64,000 nucleotides of DNA from Candidatus Multivoradales bacterium. Lineage in GTDB: Bacteria > Acidobacteriota > Thermoanaerobaculia > Multivoradales > JAHEKO01. The stretch is taken from the NCBI GenBank assembly GCA_965248055.1, contig CBDFIJ010000004.1:2336001-2400000 (forward strand), written 5' to 3'. Made by a program: the position numbers and the translations under genes. Each line of letters opens with the position of its first letter. Within the stretch, counting starts at the first letter, position 1. Below are positions 1,606 to 18,399 of the stretch, in pieces. The notes below the pieces were generated by a model. That model saw nothing but the letters and a program-made list of their open reading frames with translations. It did not search any database and was not told the origin of the DNA.

Positions 1606-2064
1606 TTAGTGTGCTGGCTGGCCCAAACCACGGTAGTTAGGAAAAGCTTCGTTAAAAGCAGTTTCCACAGCTGCCAAGAATTTTTCGCCACAACTCGCCG
1701 ATCCTGCTCTTGGAAGAGTGCTCTTGGCAACTCCGTGATACTCCACGCTGACAATGTCATTCCCCATTTCAGCTACGCAATCAAGTGAATGAACTTGACC
1801 TATTTCGTCGAACACAGCTTCAAAGAGATTAGTATCTGACTCGCGGCATACAGCCCTGACTCCGGTGGATGCCGGCATCACCATACATAGACGCCCATCT
1901 GTCCTAAAGCTTTCGGAGTTTACGATTCCACCTCGATCATAAACAATGACAAGTTTTTCGCTTTGAGAAAACAGCGCCAATTCGTGAACATGCCCCGACG
2001 CGCATCCCGCCATAAGCGCTGCCCAAAGAAGCTGCGAACTACTGCGCCGCATCGAGTCGTTCAT
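1606..2064 (-). CDS. Lipoprotein, orphan immunity protein (family A, copy 3)
   Basis: Lipobox MAGC; DCVxxMGNDI...CGExFL...YRGLG shared with 2275-2742 and 3184-3618; ATGA overlap with a toxin-tail remnant. Confidence 0.75.
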   Translation of the reverse strand: MNDSMRRSSSQLLWAALMAGCASGHVHELALFSQSEKLVIVYDRGGIVNSESFRTDGRLCMVMPASTGVRAVCRESDTNLFEAVFDEIGQVHSLDCVAEMGNDIVSVEYHGVAKSTLPRAGSASCGEKFLAAVETAFNEAFPNYRGLGQPAH

Positions 2065-3183: not shown

Positions 3184-3618
3184 TTACCAATCACCAAGGC
3201 CCCTGTAGCTCACGAAGGCGCTACTGAATGTAGCCTCAAACTCTCGAAGGAAATCTTCACCACATTTGGAGGAGCCTGGTTTGGGGCTCGTACTTATAGC
3301 GCGCCCTAGATACCCCACAGTTGCAATATTGCGCCCCATCACATCGACACAGTCAGAGTCGTAGGCTTCCTCGGCCCCTTGAAGAATCTCTCGAATCCTA
3401 GTTGGGTCGCCTTGCTTGCAAGATACCCATTCTTTGCTTGGACTCTTCGGTCTGGATAGGCACAAGCGATTGTCATGGGTTATAAACTCTGAACTGACGA
3501 GTGAATCATGGTCAAGAATAATGACCAGGATCTGATCCTGGTCGTACGTCCCGTACGATCGCGAATGCAGGCAACCGGCCAGTAGCAAAAGAATGGTAGA
3601 TGCAAGAATTGGTTTCAC
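3184..3618 (-). CDS. Lipoprotein, cognate immunity protein of the Rhs toxin (family A, copy 1)
   Basis: MKPILASTILLLLAGC lipobox; GTGA overlap with the Rhs stop. Confidence 0.8.
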   Translation of the reverse strand: MKPILASTILLLLAGCLHSRSYGTYDQDQILVIILDHDSLVSSEFITHDNRLCLSRPKSPSKEWVSCKQGDPTRIREILQGAEEAYDSDCVDVMGRNIATVGYLGRAISTSPKPGSSKCGEDFLREFEATFSSAFVSYRGLGDW

Positions 3619-6600: not shown

Positions 6601-8837
6601 GTTTCGTCCGGAAGTCCGGTGTTGGGATCAATGTCTCGATGCACCGGTGCCACTCCGATCCAGGCGCCGCCGGTCGTGTCATAACGGACCCAGCGGACAG
6701 TGCCATAGCCATTGGTTGGGCTGCGCTGGATCTGGTAGGTCTCTGCTCCCGGAAGGGTCAGAGCACATAGATTCGATGAAGTGCTGACCGCTTGTGTGTC
6801 ACCTCCATAGTAACGCTCATATCGAACCATCCCGCCGGGGTTACCCGCTACCGCGTCAGGTTCGTACTCGACGATGAGATCTTTGGCCTGGCGCCCGGTG
6901 CCTGAGAGCGTGCCCGCCTGGGTGCGCTTGCGCTCCAAGAAGCCAGTCGAAGACTCGAAGCAGAACTGCTCCTTGTAGGTCGTTGCACCTTGGGTCACCG
7001 AGCGGTCGGTGAAGGTGCTGAGAATCCAAGGGTCGGTGGTCGCCGGAGGGGTGTAACCTGCGCTGGGATAACTTCCGTTGCCGGGGTTGTAGTTGGCGAA
7101 CGTCGAACGAACGTTGCCGGATGAGAAATTTCCGTGGGTGACAGCGTTGCGATAGTGGCCGAGTCCGTCGAAGTCCGAAAACACGCTCCCTGAATAGCGG
7201 TTGCCATCGTCCACAAACACCGTCCGCTGAGCACGCAGACGACGGTTGGTGTCATGCCAGATTTGGTAAGCGTTGGCGTTCCAGGTGGCATAGATCAAGT
7301 CTGGTAGGTCATCGTGCTCGTAGTCGACGTAACTGCGTCGCAGCGCAGTCCCAGAGCATGCAAAGCGGTTATTAAACGGGCGGCTGACGGCTGACGTAGA
7401 ATTCCACTCTTCCACCGACAGGTAATAGCCACCGCTCTTGGTGCTCTCTTCCGAAAACGGCAAGCCGTAAGCCCAGCCCGGATCGGTCTGTACCGCACCG
7501 ACGAGAAAACCGGGGTTGGCGTCGTGATAGTGGGTGGTGCAGCTTCCGTCCGGTTTCTTGACGTAGGTTCTAGTTTCCCTTGGTTTATCCTCGGGATCGT
7601 CATCAAAGAAAGGCCATAGCTCGTTTTCGTACTCCCAGGTGCCGATGAGCGTTCCGTTGGCGGTGAGTGTTCGTCGCTCGGTGACGCCGAGGGTAAGGGT
7701 TTGTGCCGGAGGGGGATTGTCTCCCCAAGTGGTCTCGTTGTTCTGGGTCATGTCCCAGACGCCGTAGTCCCATTCGATCTGTCCACGGGTGGGTAGTCGG
7801 ATGCCCTGCAAAGCCCCCGATTCTCCGTCAGTAGCGCAGTCCAAGCTGTAACGGGGAGAACCATCAGGGTTGGTCATCTGGTAGGGACCGTCCGCAGGTT
7901 GCGAAACTTGGGTCAACAGGGAGACATCGTAGAAGGTAGACAACACATCCGACTGACAGCCCTCACCGATCGATCTGGTGGCGTAGCTGAAGTTGTAGAC
8001 CGCACGCTGATTCTGGGCTGCGGCAAGGTCGACCGAACTGACCATGTACCCTCCCGATTCCCCGTACGGCTCCATATGGGCGTGGTAGGTGAAGTTGATG
8101 GTGTGCGAGCGACCGGTGCTGTCAGTGATCGTCCACTCCGTGTTGGTGTAGCTGATATCTACCGAGTTGCCGAATGGATCCTCCATCTTGGTCACTCGCC
8201 AGATGTCTCCGACAGGGCTGAACTCATGGACCTGACCGTTGGGAAACTCGACGGTGTAGAGCGAGGCCGACACTTGCTTGAGCCTCAAGTAATTATTGCT
8301 GCGCGTATACCACGTTGTAGAGCTTCCGTCCGTTTCACCGTCGTGCAGTTCGTCCCAAAAAAAATGCTGTCCTGAATCTGGCCCGATGTACCGCCAGTGG
8401 GTTCGGTCCCAAGGGTTGGTTCTGGTAAAGGGGGCGGTCGGGTCAGGAGCTATAAGCACTCCCCAGCTAAGCTGCCATCCAAATCCACTATTGAAGAGTC
8501 CGTCCGGTTCACCGACCGACAACATTTCTTGTTCTTGGCAGGGCGGATCTTCGCAATCGGCGAAAAGCTCCTTGTGGTACTTCCAGTTTTTTCCTGCGAA
8601 AGACAAAGTCAATCCGTACGACAAAGATTCACTGACAACATATTGTTGCCCAATCTGAACAGCGACAGTAAGTCCTCCATTAAAAAGACTTACCGAGTCG
8701 ACGTCGCCTACTTGGTAGGTCTTTTCCGGCGTAAATCCTCGCTGCTCTCCCTGGTTTTGTTGGGCCTGGACAACAGATGAGGCAGAAGCCGCAACCAACA
8801 GGACCAAACAACAAGTAACGTGCTTTTTTGTCTTCAA
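3615..8837 (-). CDS. Rhs/YD-repeat polymorphic toxin with signal peptide and C-terminal HExxH domain (ORF track start 8927)
   Basis: YD repeats, HLDHLGTPR, FTGHERD...DYMHARY...GRFLTTDP, NPLKYVDPTG cleavage motif, HELYH; GGAGG upstream of TTG 8837. Confidence 0.93.
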   Translation of the reverse strand: MKTKKHVTCCLVLLVAASASSVVQAQQNQGEQRGFTPEKTYQVGDVDSVSLFNGGLTVAVQIGQQYVVSESLSYGLTLSFAGKNWKYHKELFADCEDPPCQEQEMLSVGEPDGLFNSGFGWQLSWGVLIAPDPTAPFTRTNPWDRTHWRYIGPDSGQHFFWDELHDGETDGSSTTWYTRSNNYLRLKQVSASLYTVEFPNGQVHEFSPVGDIWRVTKMEDPFGNSVDISYTNTEWTITDSTGRSHTINFTYHAHMEPYGESGGYMVSSVDLAAAQNQRAVYNFSYATRSIGEGCQSDVLSTFYDVSLLTQVSQPADGPYQMTNPDGSPRYSLDCATDGESGALQGIRLPTRGQIEWDYGVWDMTQNNETTWGDNPPPAQTLTLGVTERRTLTANGTLIGTWEYENELWPFFDDDPEDKPRETRTYVKKPDGSCTTHYHDANPGFLVGAVQTDPGWAYGLPFSEESTKSGGYYLSVEEWNSTSAVSRPFNNRFACSGTALRRSYVDYEHDDLPDLIYATWNANAYQIWHDTNRRLRAQRTVFVDDGNRYSGSVFSDFDGLGHYRNAVTHGNFSSGNVRSTFANYNPGNGSYPSAGYTPPATTDPWILSTFTDRSVTQGATTYKEQFCFESSTGFLERKRTQAGTLSGTGRQAKDLIVEYEPDAVAGNPGGMVRYERYYGGDTQAVSTSSNLCALTLPGAETYQIQRSPTNGYGTVRWVRYDTTGGAWIGVAPVHRDIDPNTGLPDETIADSGLRIDYTYDLLGRPTLLQPDTDHGGARTEYTYTAASGTTPAQVDAVERPNTGGTALTENRVKFDGFGRVIREERRMPDGVWNRRDTEYTARGIVDRVSTTWNGAPTTWTNNTYDQLGRPTAITAPDGNAVVLAYDGIRRVHRTVNVGTDVGVETPQTTTEEYDGQGRLYQVTEPNGTVTTYGYDPADRLISVAMSDGTTTQTRTFNYDGRGFLLSETHPEKTGAVTYSSYDARGHATRKQDGPSDLTLTYDRAERVTKVQETGGIILKEFVYWESNVGTNRLRGKLQKAKRNNRLPGVSGSPTVVIQEVYAYRGLGGQVSERETFRTGNVSLYTTGFEWNGLGLPSKICYPEVCAGGGTEISYNYTRGFLTSVPGYATSISYRRNLLLNTVVHSNGVSDVWDSDPSRILRPSRIRTTGSTATNFDTGTYSYDGSGNITAMGADNFKYDSLSRITAGNAQGAQFSEHNAYDAFGNRVRARVIGPGIDVNRNNPTDPTTNRLLGTASRPIAYNTAGSVTAWGTATYTYDELHMAVRLKDGAENESYVYTGDDERIAIIEANAGNTQTSARWMTRDLDGQVIRTYVEGGFNADPNTWTWEKDYVRREGQTLAKVTPGGTTHAHLDHLGTPRYWTNSAKGPAARHNYLPFGEEVAEGVDLEQLQFTGHERDEHTSGNCGSGTTVVDNQTISTGQQFIGCDAVTSQNTTVTSTDEVRFIAGETIELGNNFVVADGAVFVAEIDGNVISDRQDLDYMHARYCSPYLGRFLTTDPAWGYPGQPQTWNLYAYAAGNPLKYVDPTGETISLSKLTKEQRGELVQALNDFTGNTYDVNKNLELVLVDVGADASSTATDFFNDAIGMDRVFEVTAIEGRSSNGNPETGAIGINFGQVTSAESKRVDLTTFNLGSTLTHELYHTSTGLRDTRDGTLQTPLITQPGLTGPVVDFVNSIRQERGLPTRVNYVAFRSTRDRQTHYFRNVNPERPKKQYKLRRSNP

Positions 8838-9051
8838 TTTCCCAATCCTCCAAACACGAAACGTTGGCCCTCGGTTGGCCCCGCAGTAGCCCACAGGAAA
8901 ACTAACCGATCTCGATTCGCGACCCACCTAGGTTAGTCGAACGACGGGCTGAAGGACAAGTGACAGTCACACTTGCCCGATTTGCACGCTCGCTATCGGG
9001 TAATCGCAAAGTATGATGCCCTCGTTCAGTTGTTAAAGAAGGAGGTTTTTC

Positions 9052-9729
9052 ATGTCCGTGAACAATGCTATTTCGAGTTGGCATACCTTGATTGATGATT
9101 TTTCCGCTTCTGGCAAGGACTTCTTCTCCTCAGTCGAAGACGCGGTCAAGGCTCGTGAAGTTCCCGACATCGAGTTCTCGCGATTGCTGTTTAAGGAGGG
9201 CGGACTTGCTTCAGCCAAGCGCGAGTACCTTCGGATCGAACGAGGAAAGGTCGCATTCGACCTGACGGCGTTTCCGTACGGCACAGGGATGTACTTCGGT
9301 TGGTGGTTGCGCAGGATCGGACCCAAACATCCATGGTTGTGGTTGCTGGGCTTTTTCGCCGCAATCTTAATCTGGGCATTCATGCTGTTTGGATCGATGT
9401 TCGGTGCAGCATTGGGGAGTGACTCTGGTGGCTGCATGGTCTTCATCATGCTTTTCGGCATTCCCGCAGGACTCATTGCCCTCGGCTGGACAATCCAGGA
9501 GAACAAGGTCCCAATTGAGGAGGAGGCTGTCCTGGCACTTCCAGTCATCGGTTGGTTGTACGACAAGCTCTTCAGTCCAAACACGATGCATGCTCACGAT
9601 TCGGCACTCGCAATGCAGGAATCGGTGCGAAGAGCCGTGAACGATGTCCTCGACGATCTCTTGACCGGTCAGGGACTGCGAGCACTCACCGACGAAGCCA
9701 AAAAGCCATCGATCCGCTCCCTAGCTTGA
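9052..9729 (+). CDS. Hypothetical membrane protein, co-oriented with the VirD4-like ATPase
   Basis: 225 aa ORF with GGAGG RBS and two hydrophobic segments; 10 bp from the next gene. Confidence 0.75.
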   Translation: MSVNNAISSWHTLIDDFSASGKDFFSSVEDAVKAREVPDIEFSRLLFKEGGLASAKREYLRIERGKVAFDLTAFPYGTGMYFGWWLRRIGPKHPWLWLLGFFAAILIWAFMLFGSMFGAALGSDSGGCMVFIMLFGIPAGLIALGWTIQENKVPIEEEAVLALPVIGWLYDKLFSPNTMHAHDSALAMQESVRRAVNDVLDDLLTGQGLRALTDEAKKPSIRSLA

Positions 9730-9739
9730 TCTTGACCGC

Positions 9740-12700
9740 GTGAGCGTTCCGAGGGCGGTTGAACTCACCGCCAGTTTCTACGAATGGGAACGGAGAGGTA
9801 GGGGGTGGGAGCGATACCCGTATCCTGTCTCGATTGAACCGCCTCTTGTTTGGCCCAACTTTCACCGCAGTACAGCACAAGCAGTCGACGACACATACCA
9901 AGAGACGTGGCGGTCGAGGCTGTTTGGAAAGCCTTCGTCGCAGGTTCCGGAAGTCGAAGAGGAAGTCGAGGCAGACCCACCGGACGCAGTTGATCCCGTG
10001 GACTATGAAAGTGTTTCAGTCATAGCACCCGAGAGACTTGAAGTACCAGCACGAGCGGCTACCGCGTGGCTTGCGAGCTTAGAGACGTGTCAGTACCCAG
10101 TAGCGTGGGAGATTGTCGGCATACGCGACCGCGTCGTGCAGCATGTCGCATGCGCACAAGCTGACCTCGATCTTGCGACCGGATCCCTGAAAGCACTGTT
10201 TCCAGATGTCGTCGTTCGTAAAGACGAGGAAACGCTTGAAGATCGGTGGATTGAGAATGAGGAACAATTCATCACCGGAGTTGAGTTTGGGCTGGGGAGC
10301 GAGTTCATGCTGCCATTGGCACAGGCTGCTTTCTTCAACACCGATCCCCTTGCCCCCATCGTTGCAGCACTTGGAAGCGTCGACGGCATTGCCGCCCTGC
10401 AGGTTCTCTTTAGCCATGTCGAGAATAACTGGCGAGATGCGACGCTGCGGGCGGTGACCACACCCAATGGTCAGCCGTTCTTTGCCGACGCGCCACACAT
10501 CACCACCCAAGCTCTGGAGAAGATCTCTACGCCACTGGTTGCGGCGACACTGCGACTATCGGTCAGTGCGAGTACAGAAACGCTGGCTTGGGATGTGGTG
10601 CGCGGTGTTGCCGGCGGACTTGCGCAACTCACGTCAGCGCGTGGCAATGACTTGATACCCGTCGGCATCGAATCTCCGAGTGCGTTGCGTGAGGATGTGT
10701 TGATGAGACAGACGCACCGCCACGGGATGATCCTCTCCATTGAGGAGCTTGCGGGACTCGTTCATCTTCCGAATCCTTCAGTTCGTGTCCCAGCACTTGT
10801 GCGGCTTGCGGAGGCAACCAAGGCGGCTCCGGAATCCGTCAAACGAGACGGGGTGTTGCTGGGGATCAACGAGCACCAAGGTCAAGAGTCTGAGGTGCAT
10901 CTGAGTACCAGTGATCGTCTACGCCACATACACGTAGTGGGAGCTTCCGGTACTGGCAAGTCAACGCTCTTGGTCAGCATGATGCTCGACGACATCGAAA
11001 AGGGACACGGGGTTGCGGTACTCGATCCCCACGGAGATCTGGTTGATGAGCTGTTGACGAGACTGCCCGAGTCACGGCTGGACGACGTAATCCTCTTTGA
11101 CCCTGCAGACACCGAGTTTGTCGTCGGGTGGAACATCCTGGGAGCCAATACCGAGCTTGAGAAAGAGTTGCTGGCATCTGACTTAACTGCGACGTTTGCT
11201 AGGCTCTCAACGTCCTGGGGTGACCAGATGTCGACCGTGCTCTCAAACGCGGTGCTTGCTTTCTTGAACTCAACTCGTGGTGGCACGATCCAAGATCTGC
11301 GGCAGTTTCTCGTCAATCCGCCGTTCCGCTCTGAGTTCTTGGAAACGGTCACCGACGACTACATCGTTGATTATTGGAACCAAGACTTCAAGCTGATTGA
11401 GAAGCGCAACCCGCAGGCATCGATTTTGACGAGGTTGAACAACTTCCTGCGCAACAAGCTGGTTCGTGCGGTTGTGACGCTCAAAGACCATCACGTTGAC
11501 TTTCGTAAAGTGTTGGACGAGAAGCGGATCTTCCTAGCCAGGCTCTCACAGGGAGCAATTGGAGAAGAAAACGCCAGTTTGCTGGGCAACTTGCTTGTCT
11601 CCAAGATTCATCAGGTGACGCTTTCTCGGCAAGACGTGGCTTCTGGAGAGCGGAGCCCGTACTTTCTATACTTGGACGAATTTCACGAAATGGCCACGGC
11701 ATCCATGGCGACGATGTTTTCTGGTGTAAGAAAATACGGTCTTTCTTTAACCGTCGCCCATCAGGATCTGTACCAATTGCGCCAGACCTTGCCGCAGGTG
11801 GAGCGGGCAGTGCTCTCAAACGCCCACACCAGAATTTGTTTTCGGGTTGGTGACGACGATGCCAAGAAGCTCTCCGATGGGTATTCAGAGTTTGACGCCA
11901 AGTCCTTGACCGATCTGGGGATCGGTCAAGCGATTGCCAGAGTTGGAAGGAGAACGGACGATTTCAACCTCAAGACCTTCGATCTCCACAAGATCGACCG
12001 CGAGGAAGCCGCAGAGACGCTGAGAGAGCGCAGGAAGGCTGTTCTTGAGCGCTGGGGTGTACCACGTGAAAAGCAAGAGAAAAAGGCCTCAGAGGACGAG
12101 CAGGAAAGAAAAATTGACGACGCAGGTGCCGAAATTAATCCTGCGAGCGAACCAAGCGAGTCTGATCCTAAAAAACACCCGGAGGGACCGGTTCCAGATG
12201 AGACAGCTACCCAAACAGAGGGAATCGCCGCCAAACCCAAGATCGACAAAGTTACTCTCGACTACCTCGAGCACGTAGCGCGCGAGCCGTTCCTTCCAGT
12301 CAGTGAGCGAAACGAATCTCTCGGCCTTTCAGCCTGGAAAGGGCAGGCGATCAAGACCGATATTGTTGAGAGTGGTTGCGCCAAGGAAGTCTCGATCAAT
12401 CCCGGTGGTCGAGGGAAGCAATTCAAGCTCTTGGAACTCACCACAGAAGGGAGAGCGTTGCTTGATGAGTTCGGAATCCCTGCGCCAGTGGGTCACGGTC
12501 GAGGCGGCATCGAGCATCAGTGGTGGGTGAACGAGATCTCGGAGTGGCTGAAATCTCAGGGAATCGATTCGAGGATTGAAGATGAATCAAGTGGAGCGAG
12601 AGTTGATCTTGTTTTTGAATCCGAGAGTAAGAAGATTGCTGTTGAAGTAGAGACGAGTTCTGGATACGAAATCGAGAATATTTCGAAAGATTTGGCGACT

Positions 12701-13171
12701 ACGAGTTTCGAGTATGTGGTGTCGTTACTCTCCCTGGAGTCTTCGATTCCGAAGCTCCAACAACGAATTGGCGGGGAACTTCCGGACGCGCGAAGCATCC
12801 GTCTAGTTCCCCTATCTGAATACAAAGAAGGCCTCGCACATCATATTAGTCCTCGGCCTTCTGCCTTAGGACCCCAGAATCAAAAGGAAGAAACAAAACG
12901 TACGCGGCGTAGACGCTCTCCGATATCTCGCTCGACCGAAGCTCCAGTTCCGAGCGAAGTGTTCTTCCCCGAACACGGCGTGATGACAACACCAGTTGCA
13001 GCGCAGTACCTTGGCCTGAGTCCAGCAACCCTTGAAACGAAGCGCGTTCGGGGTGGCGGCCCGGTCTTTGTGAAGCTCGGAAGACGAGTTGTCTATAGGA
13101 AGGAAGATCTTGATTCTTGGATCGAGGAGCACCGCCGTCATTCGACAAGCGATCCTGGGAAGGGCGCGTGA
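9740..13171 (+). CDS. VirD4/TrwB/HerA-like ATPase with C-terminal wHTH, PD-(D/E)xK-like and excisionase-like HTH domains
   Basis: Walker A GASGTGKS, Walker B LYLDEFH, RKYGLSLTVAHQ; VDL...IAVEVET; C-terminal AAQYLGLSPATLETKRVRGGGPVFVKLGRRVVYRKEDLDSW. Confidence 0.85.
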   Translation: MSVPRAVELTASFYEWERRGRGWERYPYPVSIEPPLVWPNFHRSTAQAVDDTYQETWRSRLFGKPSSQVPEVEEEVEADPPDAVDPVDYESVSVIAPERLEVPARAATAWLASLETCQYPVAWEIVGIRDRVVQHVACAQADLDLATGSLKALFPDVVVRKDEETLEDRWIENEEQFITGVEFGLGSEFMLPLAQAAFFNTDPLAPIVAALGSVDGIAALQVLFSHVENNWRDATLRAVTTPNGQPFFADAPHITTQALEKISTPLVAATLRLSVSASTETLAWDVVRGVAGGLAQLTSARGNDLIPVGIESPSALREDVLMRQTHRHGMILSIEELAGLVHLPNPSVRVPALVRLAEATKAAPESVKRDGVLLGINEHQGQESEVHLSTSDRLRHIHVVGASGTGKSTLLVSMMLDDIEKGHGVAVLDPHGDLVDELLTRLPESRLDDVILFDPADTEFVVGWNILGANTELEKELLASDLTATFARLSTSWGDQMSTVLSNAVLAFLNSTRGGTIQDLRQFLVNPPFRSEFLETVTDDYIVDYWNQDFKLIEKRNPQASILTRLNNFLRNKLVRAVVTLKDHHVDFRKVLDEKRIFLARLSQGAIGEENASLLGNLLVSKIHQVTLSRQDVASGERSPYFLYLDEFHEMATASMATMFSGVRKYGLSLTVAHQDLYQLRQTLPQVERAVLSNAHTRICFRVGDDDAKKLSDGYSEFDAKSLTDLGIGQAIARVGRRTDDFNLKTFDLHKIDREEAAETLRERRKAVLERWGVPREKQEKKASEDEQERKIDDAGAEINPASEPSESDPKKHPEGPVPDETATQTEGIAAKPKIDKVTLDYLEHVAREPFLPVSERNESLGLSAWKGQAIKTDIVESGCAKEVSINPGGRGKQFKLLELTTEGRALLDEFGIPAPVGHGRGGIEHQWWVNEISEWLKSQGIDSRIEDESSGARVDLVFESESKKIAVEVETSSGYEIENISKDLATTSFEYVVSLLSLESSIPKLQQRIGGELPDARSIRLVPLSEYKEGLAHHISPRPSALGPQNQKEETKRTRRRRSPISRSTEAPVPSEVFFPEHGVMTTPVAAQYLGLSPATLETKRVRGGGPVFVKLGRRVVYRKEDLDSWIEEHRRHSTSDPGKGA

Positions 13172-13182
13172 AACGGTATGTC

Positions 13183-13250
13183 GTGATTACTATGTGATTA
13201 CCAGCCGAGACGCTTACGGGCCAGGAACTCTCGTAAGTTGTTGAAAAGAA
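13183..13250. other. Putative att arm region of a tRNA-integrated island
   Basis: GTGATTAC direct repeat at 13183 and 13194; CGTAAGTTGTTGAAAAGAA abuts the tRNA CCA end. Confidence 0.5.
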
Positions 13251-13327
13251 TGGTGCACCGAGGAGAATTCGAATCCCCAACCTCCTGATCCGTAGTCAGG
13301 TGCTCTATCCAATTGAGCTATCGGTGC
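13251..13327 (-). tRNA. tRNA-Arg (anticodon ACG)
   Basis: Reverse complement GCACCGATAGCTCAATTGGATAGAGCACCTGACTACGGATCAGGAGGTTGGGGATTCGAATTCTCCTCGGTGCACCA forms a cloverleaf with CCA end. Confidence 0.97.
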
Positions 13328-13353
13328 ACGTTCCAAGAACGGCAGGGAGGCGA

Positions 13354-13382
13354 ATTTTAGGCGAAGAATGGGTCATCAGCAA
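13354..13382 (-). promoter_or_regulatory. Sigma70-like promoter of tRNA-Arg
   Basis: TTGCTG-N17-TAAAAT on the minus strand, 26 bp upstream of the tRNA. Confidence 0.6.
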
Positions 13383-14431
13383 GCTCGTGTATGCGTCCAT
13401 GACATATGGCACTGATCGGTATGTTCAGCTACGTATTGTAGCGGTGGTCTTTGTCCGTGGCTCCAGTGGGGCCTTTCGGCGTTAAACCAGAGCATCCAGT
13501 CGAAGAGTTTTTGGTTGAAAGCTTGGAGGTCAGTGAAGAGCAAGTCTTCGTTGTAGTCAACGAATTTCTCTTGGATGGTTCGATTGAATCTCTCGGCTTG
13601 GGCGTTCATCTTCGGGCACCTGGGGTAGGTGTATCAGCGTTTGATTCCAGCCTCAGCAGCTTTCTTGTCGAAGGCTCCTTGAAACTCACTACCGTTGTCT
13701 GAGAGCACGGTAGTAACAGCAAATGGCAAGACATCGAGGCTCAGGTCCAGAAAGTGGGCTGCCGTGCTCGAGGTGTGGGAGTTGGTAGCTATTGCCAGAC
13801 TCATGCTGCTGGCGGCATCGCTCAGAGTGATCAAGTACCGGCGTTGGCCATCACAGAATCGCTCGATGGTATCTACTGCCACCCACTGGCCAGGCGAGCA
13901 TGCCTTGGTTCCTTTGGGCTTGCGAGGCTTACGCTTTCGTTTTGCTTTCACTCGACCCAGGCGATCAATCCTTTGGGGCACCAAGCGCATCTTGTCGGGA
14001 GCGTCGGCAATGATACGGCCAATCGTGCTCACAGACGGGCAGTCAATCCCTAGCGCCTCGCACCAGGGTTTCAAGAGTGGGTAGATCTTGTCCTTGCCAA
14101 AGTTAGGCTCTTTGACCCGCAGTCGACGGATCTCGGCCACTACATCAGGAGGCCAAGCACGACGTCTTCTCTTCTTCGGAGCTGTTGATTGAGGGTTTAG
14201 AGAGGTTAGCTTTCCTTTGCACCTACGAAGACGAGACTTCCAGCGATACAGAGTCCTCCGGTTCACCGAAAATGCATCGATCGCTGCATCGATCCCATGC
14301 TCCTGCCAGAATCTCAATGCTCGGATACGTTTCTCAGCGCTATCTTGGGTCATGACCCAAGATACCCCTAGATGACGAAGATGTCCCAGGCCTTGGAAAC
14401 GCCCTCTGATCAACCTCATGCTCATCGACAC
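13376..14431 (-). pseudogene. IS481-family DDE transposase interrupted by an in-frame TGA at 13634-13636
   Basis: VAVDT, SDNGSEF, then GIKR*YTYPRCPKMNAQAERFNRTIQE in one frame; RPHWS motif. Confidence 0.85.
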
Positions 14432-17877: not shown

Positions 17878-18399
17878 ATGTTTCAGAATCAGCCCATATT
17901 GCCCGTCTCGCCGAAGGCGACCGAGGAGCGTAGCGACGAGGGATCCGGAGGGGAGACGGCGCAGTTGTCCTCGACCCCCGAATCGGTACCCGACCCTGAG
18001 ATCGAGGCTCGACCCGCCAGACGGCGGTTTACGGCAAAGTACAAACTGGCGATCTTGGAGCAGGCCGACGCTTGCTCCAGCCGAGAGGAGGTCGGGTCCC
18101 TGTTGCGCCGGGAGGGTCTCTACTCATCTCATCTATCTAACTGGCGCCTAGCTCGGCGACGGGGATCGCTTGCCGCGCTCGGCAAGAGGCGCGGACGCAA
18201 ACCCAAAAGGCACCCGTTGGAAAGCAAGGTTGCTCGACTAGAGCGGGAGAAGACTCGACTAGAGCGGGAGAAGACTCGACTAGAGCGGGAGAAGACTCGG
18301 CTTGAGAACGAATTGCACAGGGCACAGCTGATCATCGATGTGCAAAGAAAAGTAGCCGGGCTGCTGGGTATCCCCTCAGAGGGCGAGAAGAACTCGTGA
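17878..18399 (+). CDS. IS3-family transposase OrfA
   Basis: RRRFTAKYKLAIL...LLRREGLYSSHLSNWR HTH followed by a leucine zipper. Confidence 0.88.
   Translation: MFQNQPILPVSPKATEERSDEGSGGETAQLSSTPESVPDPEIEARPARRRFTAKYKLAILEQADACSSREEVGSLLRREGLYSSHLSNWRLARRRGSLAALGKRRGRKPKRHPLESKVARLEREKTRLEREKTRLEREKTRLENELHRAQLIIDVQRKVAGLLGIPSEGEKNS
18233..18295 (+). repeat. Three exact 21-bp tandem repeats encoding RLEREKT
   Basis: CTCGACTAGAGCGGGAGAAGA x3. Confidence 0.95.

Follow-up and report, generated by a model that had tools for sequence, protein, structure and literature searches.

A predicted VirB4-like ATPase-nuclease fusion in the backbone of a tRNA-Arg integrative element

What might a single polypeptide do that joins a secretion-type ATPase to a nuclease and an excisionase-like helix-turn-helix (HTH) domain, and that is encoded at the very end of a genomic island? 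This question is raised by a 64,000-nucleotide stretch of a Candidatus Multivoradales genome, hereafter the window (G000:C4:2336001-2400000, where G000 is the window's own genome, 3.4 Mb in size and 97.7% complete). The protein, P0001, for which BIG is used here as a shorthand, comprises 1143 amino acids (aa); its gene follows that of P0002, a protein with two hydrophobic, putatively transmembrane segments (2-TM protein), and ends close to a tRNA-Arg gene (Table 1). BIG probably handles the DNA of its own island, and its core, together with the 2-TM partner, characterizes a family of integrative elements that is widespread and undescribed. In the reading that we prefer, to which we assign a probability of about one half, BIG is the element's membrane-tethered VirB4-like motor-nuclease, which processes or moves the element's own DNA and is here fused to DNA-recognition and excision-factor domains.

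Architecture of the fusion protein and its membrane partner

An original prediction, made from the sequence alone, had described an uninterrupted reading frame, and the frame indeed runs from a GTG start without any internal stop. The domains follow in the order VirB4-like N-terminal domain (N-domain), ATPase, charged linker of about 80 residues, winged HTH (wHTH), nuclease and HTH_17. The N-domain was modelled as aa 1-375 from an alignment of 121 rows, with a predicted local distance difference test score (pLDDT) of 91.3 and a predicted template modelling score (pTM) of 0.88. TrwK, the VirB4 protein of plasmid R388, accounts for nine of the ten best Foldseek matches of this model (best E 4.4e-5), and in a wide fold search of 48,161 chains it alone reached a Z of at least 8 (Z 15.1; runner-up 7.2). 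A second fold comparison placed model residues 84-355 on residues 34-401 of TrwK, the VirB4 N-terminal domain, with Z 15.7 and a root-mean-square deviation (rmsd) of 3.4 over 240 aligned residues. The N-domain of BIG, as modelled, is folded like the N-terminal domain of VirB4. Its label, DUF8128, was taken from precomputed labels and the Atlas; a Pfam search with the N-terminal 387 aa at E values up to 10 returned no family in the local copy, and a full-text literature search, which leaves subscription journals outside its coverage, turned up no paper on DUF8128. The sole hydropathy segment of BIG over threshold (aa 204-225, score 1.77) is not taken as a transmembrane helix because it falls within the N-domain, whose fold is modelled with confidence.

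The ATPase has intact Walker A and Walker B motifs. Its Pfam matches over aa 380-720 are T4SS-DNA_transf (8.8e-12), TrwB_AAD_bind (1.8e-11), TraG-D_C and DUF87; TrwB (5e-6) and DotL (1e-4) are found in the PDB by profile, and phrog_5156 matches at 6.9e-51 in PHROGs. The NCBIfam coupling-protein models score far under their cut-offs on BIG (53 bits against 250, the others lower). The ATPase had been called VirD4-like, and the Pfam families of type IV coupling proteins (T4CPs) that it matches support that description, whereas the VirB4-type fold of the N-domain indicates that BIG is not simply a VirD4-type coupling protein.

The charged linker that had been described is also present (Table 1); the model covers only its aa 801-835, where the block has a pLDDT of 54-56 and no secondary structure. 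The C-terminal model, which spans aa 801-1143 and was built from an alignment of 43 rows (mean pLDDT 83), contains three folded units: a winged helix, a nuclease and a terminal HTH. The winged helix matches MarR (Z 12.3-12.8, rmsd 1.6-1.7, 77 aligned), and a second fold search with the C-terminal model was filled by MarR matches, giving nothing further on the nuclease. The nuclease has an alpha-beta-beta-beta-alpha-beta core of the PD-(D/E)xK type, whose strands 2 and 3 carry conserved acidic residues. Structurally it comes closest to the nuclease domain of Can2 (Z 10.4, rmsd 2.7, 119 aligned, 10% identity); further Foldseek matches are Bax1 (2.4e-4), VC1899 and Cdn1. In 30 and 121 aligned relatives D956 and E969 are invariant, and H926, E947, N980 and K983 are kept in at least 90%; the third motif is E-V-E and not E-x-K. 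The GRGG (aa 920-923), RVDL (aa 954-957) and VEVE (aa 968-971) motifs, which had been read as part of a wHTH-like segment, are found within the nuclease fold, which the winged helix precedes in the model. The proposal of a relaxase-like nuclease has therefore to be divided: the last ~320 residues do contain a genuine nuclease fold in the model, and do so in the arrangement wHTH plus PD-(D/E)xK, whereas similarity to the Replic_Relax family is lacking and the nuclease is ancestral to the family of BIG (see below).

The terminal Xis/HTH_17-like domain that had been proposed is recognized by Pfam HTH_17 (PF12728) at aa 1081-1132 (2.8e-9, 37.5 bits against a cut-off of 27). Its best PDB match is the excisionase RdfS (8dgl; phmmer 2.7e-7), on which Foldseek places it with 43% identity and an rmsd of 0.8 over 53 aligned columns.

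The 2-TM partner, P0002, has its hydrophobic segments at aa 93-123 and 124-149, and its stop codon sits 10 nt ahead of BIG. Its homologues form a cluster of 64 ORFs (open reading frames), found in the window and in 62 of the 80 loci surveyed below, several of which are truncated upstream; in the gene maps they are mostly directly upstream of BIG, in keeping with the earlier suggestion that the two genes belong together. P0002 reaches the cut-off of no family in Pfam, PADLOC, PHROG or NCBIfam and falls only in unnamed clusters in the Atlas. A complex prediction for the N-domain and the 2-TM protein scored 0.01, which has no bearing on binding either way. According to one review (PMC12857230), VirB3 is a small two-TM protein whose gene lies beside virB4, and the N-terminal domain of VirB4 contacts VirB3. 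Because the N-domain has a VirB4 fold in the model and a 2-TM gene lies just upstream, the pair looks like VirB3-VirB4, and P0002 is a candidate VirB3-like anchor or partner. In VirB3-VirB4 (TrwM/TrwK of R388; 7o42, 7o43, 8rtb), a VirB4 N-terminal fold is likewise followed by a RecA-type ATPase, on a mobile element and with a small 2-TM protein encoded immediately upstream. The likeness has limits: VirB3 is quoted at 10-15 kDa and P0002 is larger (225 aa), and the ATPase of BIG is closer in sequence to TrwB and DotL than to VirB4. To our knowledge, C-terminal nuclease and DNA-binding domains are unknown in VirB4.

An element backbone in a widespread family

BIG is the final gene ahead of attR, one of the two attachment (att) sites of its island. 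With tRNA-Arg(acg) on the minus strand, its stop codon is 79 nt from the 3' end of the tRNA (13172-13250), the distance given in the original prediction. The att site is an exact 58-nt direct repeat, made up of 48 nt of the 3' part of the tRNA and 10 nt beyond it, and a pair of such copies 40,114 bp apart delimits an island of ~40 kb, which bears out the island end that had been proposed; elsewhere inside the window there is no second copy of the repeat. A tyrosine integrase with an Arm-DNA-bind_3 domain adjoins attL, at the island end opposite BIG. A tandem GATTACY-N4-GATTACY lies 14 nt past the BIG stop codon, and its twin is found 107 nt inside attL, directly ahead of the integrase start; the pattern occurs four times in the 3.4-Mb genome, twice at the two arms of the island. 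In the assembled contigs of four runs of one sample, 9000-13270 is covered with zero differences; the sample is probably the source sample, and the contigs are hence not independent. A run contig of 40,116 nt corresponds to the island between the repeats, and a loose end at 13241 to the chromosomal flank of attL. De Bruijn contigs end wherever they reach the 58-nt repeat and so bear on neither attB nor attP.

The island further encodes metabolic cargo (a cupin, an aminotransferase, two AlaX-like genes and an extra pheS/pheT pair), a split UvrD, a large serine recombinase, two RadC genes, an AAA_13 ATPase, an RHS toxin and a separate 422-aa TrwB/DUF87-like ATPase. A PHROGs search with 14 unassigned island ORFs gave zero matches, and a promoter and terminator scan of 8800-13400 gave the same counts as shuffled sequences.

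A genome of the same genus, G314, carries two full-fusion copies of BIG, one in each of two elements that stand in tandem at tRNA-Arg(acg) and have three att copies between them. From the integrase, both elements continue with cargo, the small ATPase, RadC, further cargo, the TM gene and BIG. No gene separates BIG from att in the first element; two more ORFs (453 and 213 aa, with no Pfam family) stand between BIG and the tRNA in the second. Compared with the window's element, the integrase is 71-73% identical, the small ATPase 45%, the TM protein 72-80% and BIG 73-74%, and the cargo is unrelated save for an RHS gene in one G314 element. GATTAC tandem repeats on both arms are also seen in one G314 element. 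Because the integrase, small ATPase, RadC, TM protein and BIG are constant while the cargo is swapped in the three sister elements, BIG belongs to the element backbone and is not cargo. A six-frame search of these three tyrosine-integrase elements found no HTH_17-like region besides that of BIG itself.

Within the same phylum, parts of BIG also occur in other arrangements. In G398, a stand-alone ORF of 446 aa is collinear with BIG aa 776-1130 (26% identity, E 4e-20) and comprises the linker, wHTH, nuclease and HTH_17; directly after it come a tyrosine integrase and tRNA-Arg(ccg). In G046, a DUF87-type ATPase of 711 aa has a C-terminal wHTH and nuclease (E 2e-20), and the element, at tRNA-Arg(acg), encodes HTH_17 as a protein of its own (106 aa) next to the integrase, plus ParB. 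In a library of 1.84 billion representatives, 959 sequences are related to the wHTH-nuclease cassette at E up to 0.001. Among the best 150 of these, six are at least 1000 aa long and contain the N-domain, ATPase, wHTH and nuclease (HTH_17 too in four), 58 of 600-999 aa have the cassette at the C terminus (Walker A in 50), and 86 are shorter than 600 aa, some of them surely fragments. From this breakdown by length, the cassette pairs repeatedly with P-loop ATPases of the superfamily of BIG.

Relatives of the whole protein number more than 2,500 at E up to 0.001 among 8,000 candidates scored, and at least 582 places in 185,579 genomes (one per species) encode one. The best 80 of these loci were surveyed by calling and clustering ORFs and scanning them with domain hidden Markov models, neighbours being named by Pfam on representatives. 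Their records are titled Acidobacteriota, Verrucomicrobiota, Planctomycetota, Gemmatimonadota, Bacteroidota and others. The N-domain, ATPase and nuclease occur together in all 68 ORFs of at least 900 aa (67 loci and the window); the nuclease is ancestral to the whole family and is not a captured relaxase. The wHTH, by comparison, is found among the 80 loci only in L007 and L008, and HTH_17 only in these two and in L006, L055 and L083, in each case in addition to the window. Among the best 120 database rows, 51 have HTH_17 at about full coverage, a count that includes the protein of the window itself. In the two loci with both additions the distance from the BIG stop to the tRNA 3' end is 65 nt (L007, tRNA-Arg) and 113 nt (L008, tRNA-Thr).

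The neighbours of BIG also recur. A large serine recombinase is present in 30 loci, as the next ORF in 12 and with one small ORF between in 5 more, often with a split comM after it. A small paralogous ATPase of 284-512 aa is found in 25 loci, directly before the TM gene in 8; in 6 loci it stands beside Replic_Relax, directly or one gene apart. Other neighbours are a DnaG-type primase (11 loci), RadC (10), tyrosine integrase, Replic_Relax and ArdC (9 each), RuvC-like proteins (7) and ParB (3). All of these belong to elements that integrate, replicate and are transferred, and the relatives of BIG are strongly tied to islands and recombinases, as the original prediction requires. Domain folds, conservation, synteny, backbone status and att sites are thus established for BIG.

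Viral sequences are a poor source of relatives: 2.9 million viral contigs hold only three that are near full length, and of the 41 records that match in a phage collection none does so over 80% of the query, with at most 23% identity among the 15 matches listed. A reading of BIG as a virus-packaging ATPase was rejected, given this rarity and the absence of capsid and terminase genes from the three sister elements. Near-identical copies across phyla, which would be a sign of recent transfer, were not found, with none above 90% outside one metagenome-assembled genome (MAG).

The window's own genome contains a second integrative element, beside tRNA-SeC, which has no BIG-type gene. It encodes a tyrosine integrase, a 569-aa TrwB-like ATPase directly followed by Replic_Relax, and a 484-aa TrwB-like ATPase on the opposite strand.

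Table 1. Coordinates of BIG, its island and further features; positions are those of the window unless a genome and contig are given
Feature	Position	Strand	Basis or remark
2-TM protein P0002, 225 aa	9052-9729	+	two hydrophobic segments
BIG, fusion protein P0001	9740-13171	+	ORF call, Pfam, database searches
N-domain, aa 1-365, DUF8128 (PF26449); VirB4 N-terminal-domain-fold core aa 84-356	9740-10834	+	model, fold searches
P-loop ATPase, aa 366-756, TrwB/VirD4/HerA-like	10835-12007	+	Pfam, PADLOC, PHROG, PDB profile, motifs
Walker A, aa 401-408	10940-10963		intact
Walker B, aa 642-647	11663-11680		intact
Charged linker, aa 757-835	12008-12244	+	43% D/E/K/R; low confidence
MarR-like wHTH, aa 836-915 (modelled fold aa 837-910)	12245-12484	+	fold search
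PD-(D/E)xK nuclease, aa 916-1040 (modelled fold aa 923-1036)	12485-12859	+	fold, conservation
HTH_17/excisionase-like domain, aa 1078-1139	12971-13156	+	Pfam, phmmer, Foldseek
Tandem GATTACY-N4-GATTACY	13185-13202	+	candidate arm-type binding site for recombinase or recombination directionality factor; recurs at other island arm
attR, 58-nt exact direct repeat	13241-13298 (= G000:C4:2349241-2349298)		twin attL outside window
attL, 58-nt exact repeat twin	G000:C4:2309127-2309184		outside window
tRNA-Arg(acg), integration target	13251-13327	-	sole tRNA in window
Tandem elements of G314 (L110-L113)	G314:C2:1316569-1387747
Second integrative element of own genome (L122)	G000:C4:2576758-2588794		by tRNA-SeC
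RHS-repeat protein, 1770 aa	3615-8927	-	RHS_repeat, Rhs_assc_core, GCX_COOH
Small ORFs downstream of RHS gene	3184-3618 and 1606-2064		cluster together
Cargo cluster (L001, L003)	G000:C4:2311162-2320653		in island
Split UvrD-like helicase	G000:C4:2323075-2324994 (L002:3075-4994)		ORFs of 366 and 264 aa; in island
Truncated IS481-family transposase	13634-14431	-	rve, HTH_32; just beyond attR
21-nt unit, three tandem copies	18233-18306		in ORF region

Proposed role and competing explanations

The activities of BIG, and the order in which they might act, are inferred as follows. In the reading of BIG as a motor-nuclease for its own element, the core (VirB4-like N-domain, TrwB-like ATPase and nuclease) and the 2-TM protein would form a membrane-tethered DNA motor with a nuclease. 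The tyrosine integrase would first excise the element; the C-terminal head, on its 80-residue flexible linker, would then recognize element DNA through the MarR-like wHTH, the nuclease would cut or nick this DNA, and the hexameric motor would thread it at the membrane, probably aided by the island's small TrwB-like ATPase. The RdfS-like HTH_17, a lineage-specific addition, would most likely be the element's recombination directionality factor (RDF) and couple excision to DNA processing. RdfS of ICEMlSym(R7A) and other excisionases of the HTH_17/MerR type are likewise encoded at the att end of tyrosine-integrase elements; RdfS differs in that it is a protein of ~90 aa, whereas here the domain is the C-terminal part of a 1143-aa motor and its RDF role is predicted. 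A bolder version, which we consider unlikely, is that the small TrwB-like ATPase, the 2-TM protein and BIG suffice by themselves as a minimal apparatus for DNA transfer that needs no canonical type IV secretion system (T4SS), the fusion physically coupling excision, cutting and export. One polypeptide would then add origin recognition, cutting and recombination directionality in this lineage. The phyla concerned are ones in which conjugation is essentially undescribed.

Several observations weigh against the preferred reading. BIG matches no VirB4 sequence family above threshold (PF03135 is unlisted at E up to 0.01, and TIGR00929 gives 15.9 bits, its cut-off being 643), so that the term VirB4-like describes fold and architecture. 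No mating-pore genes (VirB6, VirB8 and others) were recognized among the island ORFs by Pfam or PHROGs, and the three related elements leave scant room for them, although the island may possibly contain divergent ones. In a collection of 72,556 plasmids 280 records match, none over 80% of BIG. With regard to the nuclease, the C-terminal region has zero matches to Replic_Relax (PF13814) at E up to 10; hhalign of the wHTH and nuclease against nine neighbouring Replic_Relax proteins gives a probability of at most 2.3%, and against the genome's own Replic_Relax 0.1% (BLASTP E 1). Since the BIG nuclease is present alongside separate Replic_Relax genes in 9 loci, it need not be the nickase. Finally, HTH_17 is a general DNA-binding domain, and the arm tandem repeats suit integrase arm sites equally with RDF sites.

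Could BIG instead serve a mobilizable element as coupling protein, MOBC-type relaxase and excisionase in one, docking nicked DNA on a helper T4SS? The T4CP Pfam families, the RdfS-like HTH_17 and the lack of a recognized separate relaxase among the island ORFs agree with this idea, as does the occurrence of an ATPase followed by Replic_Relax, as two genes, both in 9 related loci and in the element beside tRNA-SeC. MOBC relaxases (TraX of pAD1; Replic_Relax) are moreover PD-(D/E)xK enzymes with a wHTH plus PD-(D/E)xK architecture, according to PMC12857230, and like BIG those of pAD1 (TraX) and CloDF13 (MobC) have a winged helix followed by the nuclease and an association with a T4CP-like ATPase. 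However, the head of BIG has no detectable sequence or profile similarity to them, and its nuclease predates its wHTH and is present even beside separate Replic_Relax genes; membership of BIG in Replic_Relax is not supported, and the resemblance is architectural. Nor does the motor fit well. The coupling proteins TrwB, TraD, VirD4 and DotL share with BIG T4SS-DNA_transf, TrwB_AAD_bind, TraG-D_C, intact Walker motifs and a place on mobile elements, but BIG lacks an N-terminal transmembrane segment and has a 365-aa VirB4-like domain in its place, and its genome has no visible T4SS; the island's separate 422-aa TrwB-like ATPase is a better coupling-protein candidate. A search of the window's own genome for VirB4 found none by PF03135 (for which the control scored in 1 of 14 genomes only) or TIGR00929, and five other carrier genomes had none above cut-off, one of the two sub-threshold matches being BIG itself. 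Because canonical VirB4 was found in none of the six carrier genomes, no resident helper pore is visible, and we consider the mobilizable-element explanation improbable.

A role in defence or exclusion must also be weighed, in which a HerA/T4CP-like ATPase-nuclease, tethered by the 2-TM protein, degrades the DNA of incoming phages or rival elements, with the wHTH and HTH_17 used for sensing or autoregulation. An ATPase combined with a nuclease is a common logic in defence. The top profile match of the ATPase in PADLOC, and a further point against a transfer motor, is mad8 (9.4e-22), and MAD7-MAD8 is an ATPase-nuclease module required in MADS defence according to PMC13662399. Conflict-related cargo is also near, with the AAA_13 ATPase and RHS toxin in the island and GmrSD, DpnII-type restriction endonucleases and a ThiF/DUF6791 cluster in related loci. 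MADS MAD7-MAD8 and HerA-nuclease pairs resemble BIG as ATPases of the same superfamily working with a nuclease, and the likeness to Can2/Card1-type nucleases is at the level of the fold only, BIG having no CARF sensor. The PADLOC match is, however, confined to the ATPase: the nuclease, the TM protein, the RHS protein and the two genes right of the tRNA have zero matches, no further MADS protein was found, and there is no methyltransferase among the island ORFs. BIG differs from MADS further in its VirB4-like N-domain, its membrane partner and its behaviour as a backbone gene. In the three sister elements, cargo turns over around an unchanging set of BIG, its TM partner and the small ATPase; the position of BIG is fixed beside a recombinase or att site in many loci; the conjugative leading-region genes ArdC and RadC, a primase and a relaxase recur beside it; and the VirB4-type fold of the N-domain and the 2-TM gene upstream point elsewhere. 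The defence alternative is weakened by these findings, and we regard it as unlikely, though less so than the mobilizable element.

An accessory role in recombination or segregation would make BIG an FtsK-like translocase-nuclease that aids the recombinase, in directionality or in resolving multimers and tandem arrays, without cell-to-cell transfer. BIG adjoins a recombinase gene or att site in many loci and has C-terminal DNA-binding domains, the RDF-like domain in G398 is fused or adjacent to the integrase, G314 has tandem arrays, and RuvC-like and ParB genes are found nearby. The VirB4-type fold and the membrane partner suggest, on the other hand, an envelope machine, and ArdC, RadC, primase and Replic_Relax are neighbours typical of transferred DNA; we rate this role slightly below even the mobilizable element. 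That the fusion is an artefact of assembly or a decaying pseudogene, as the original prediction had cautioned for assembly, is scarcely credible, since the frame is uninterrupted, the catalytic-type residues are conserved, and the same architecture recurs in the database rows counted above, in L007 and L008 and twice in G314.

Among the papers listed by a literature search, which did not extend to subscription journals, none describes in its title or the opening of its abstract a fusion of VirB4 with a nuclease in integrative elements. New here are the wHTH and RdfS-like additions, the context of tRNA-Arg and tyrosine integrase with arm repeats, the tandem sister elements and the series of shuffled domains. 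In soil and freshwater phyla such as Acidobacteriota, Verrucomicrobiota, Planctomycetota, Gemmatimonadota and Bacteroidota, and even in bacteria of the candidate phyla radiation, genomes are shaped by integrative elements, and the constant core of this family is a secretion-type ATPase with a built-in nuclease, in genomes without a recognizable conjugation pore. If this core does move DNA, horizontal transfer would have a route that is both new and very compact. Since evolution has fused them, the variant in the window shows that motor, DNA recognition, nuclease and excision factor belong together, and it offers a single protein in which point mutations can knock out each step. If the core instead serves defence, mobile elements would be keeping in their backbone a membrane-tethered ATPase-nuclease system of a new kind.

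Other features of the island and of related loci

The RHS-repeat protein is encoded divergently from the TM-BIG pair, and the two small ORFs downstream of its gene could be immunity genes. RHS homologues accompany TM-BIG in L007 as well, and in one of the G314 elements (53% identity). At the other side of the island, the cargo cluster comprises a cupin, a class-V aminotransferase, two AlaX-like editing-domain proteins and the second pheS/pheT; the housekeeping pheS, at C4:2763335, scores 327 bits and the island copy 241. This cargo could be a self-resistance or biosynthetic set. The UvrD-like helicase is split into two ORFs.

In related loci, comM halves flank the elements of L005, L013, L014, L019, L031, L037, L039, L047, L052, L053, L057, L071, L079 and L082, and comM (Mg-chelatase) is therefore a frequent target of the serine recombinases of the family. 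L031 and L058, from MAGs titled Bacteroidetes and Candidatus Paceibacterota, have in common a cluster of five genes that lies between BIG and the end of the element and includes one for a ThiF/DUF6791 E1-like protein of the ubiquitin-like conjugation type. L066, L069 and L075 are three copies of BIG with 75-90% identity in one Bacteroidetes MAG (MKUN01), which shows that one genome can contain several elements of the family.

Just beyond attR lies the truncated transposase of the IS481 family, where the run contigs are several-fold deeper and have variant letters, as expected of a multi-copy insertion sequence. Further along the window, the unit repeated three times in tandem is CTCGACTAGAGCGGGAGAAGA.

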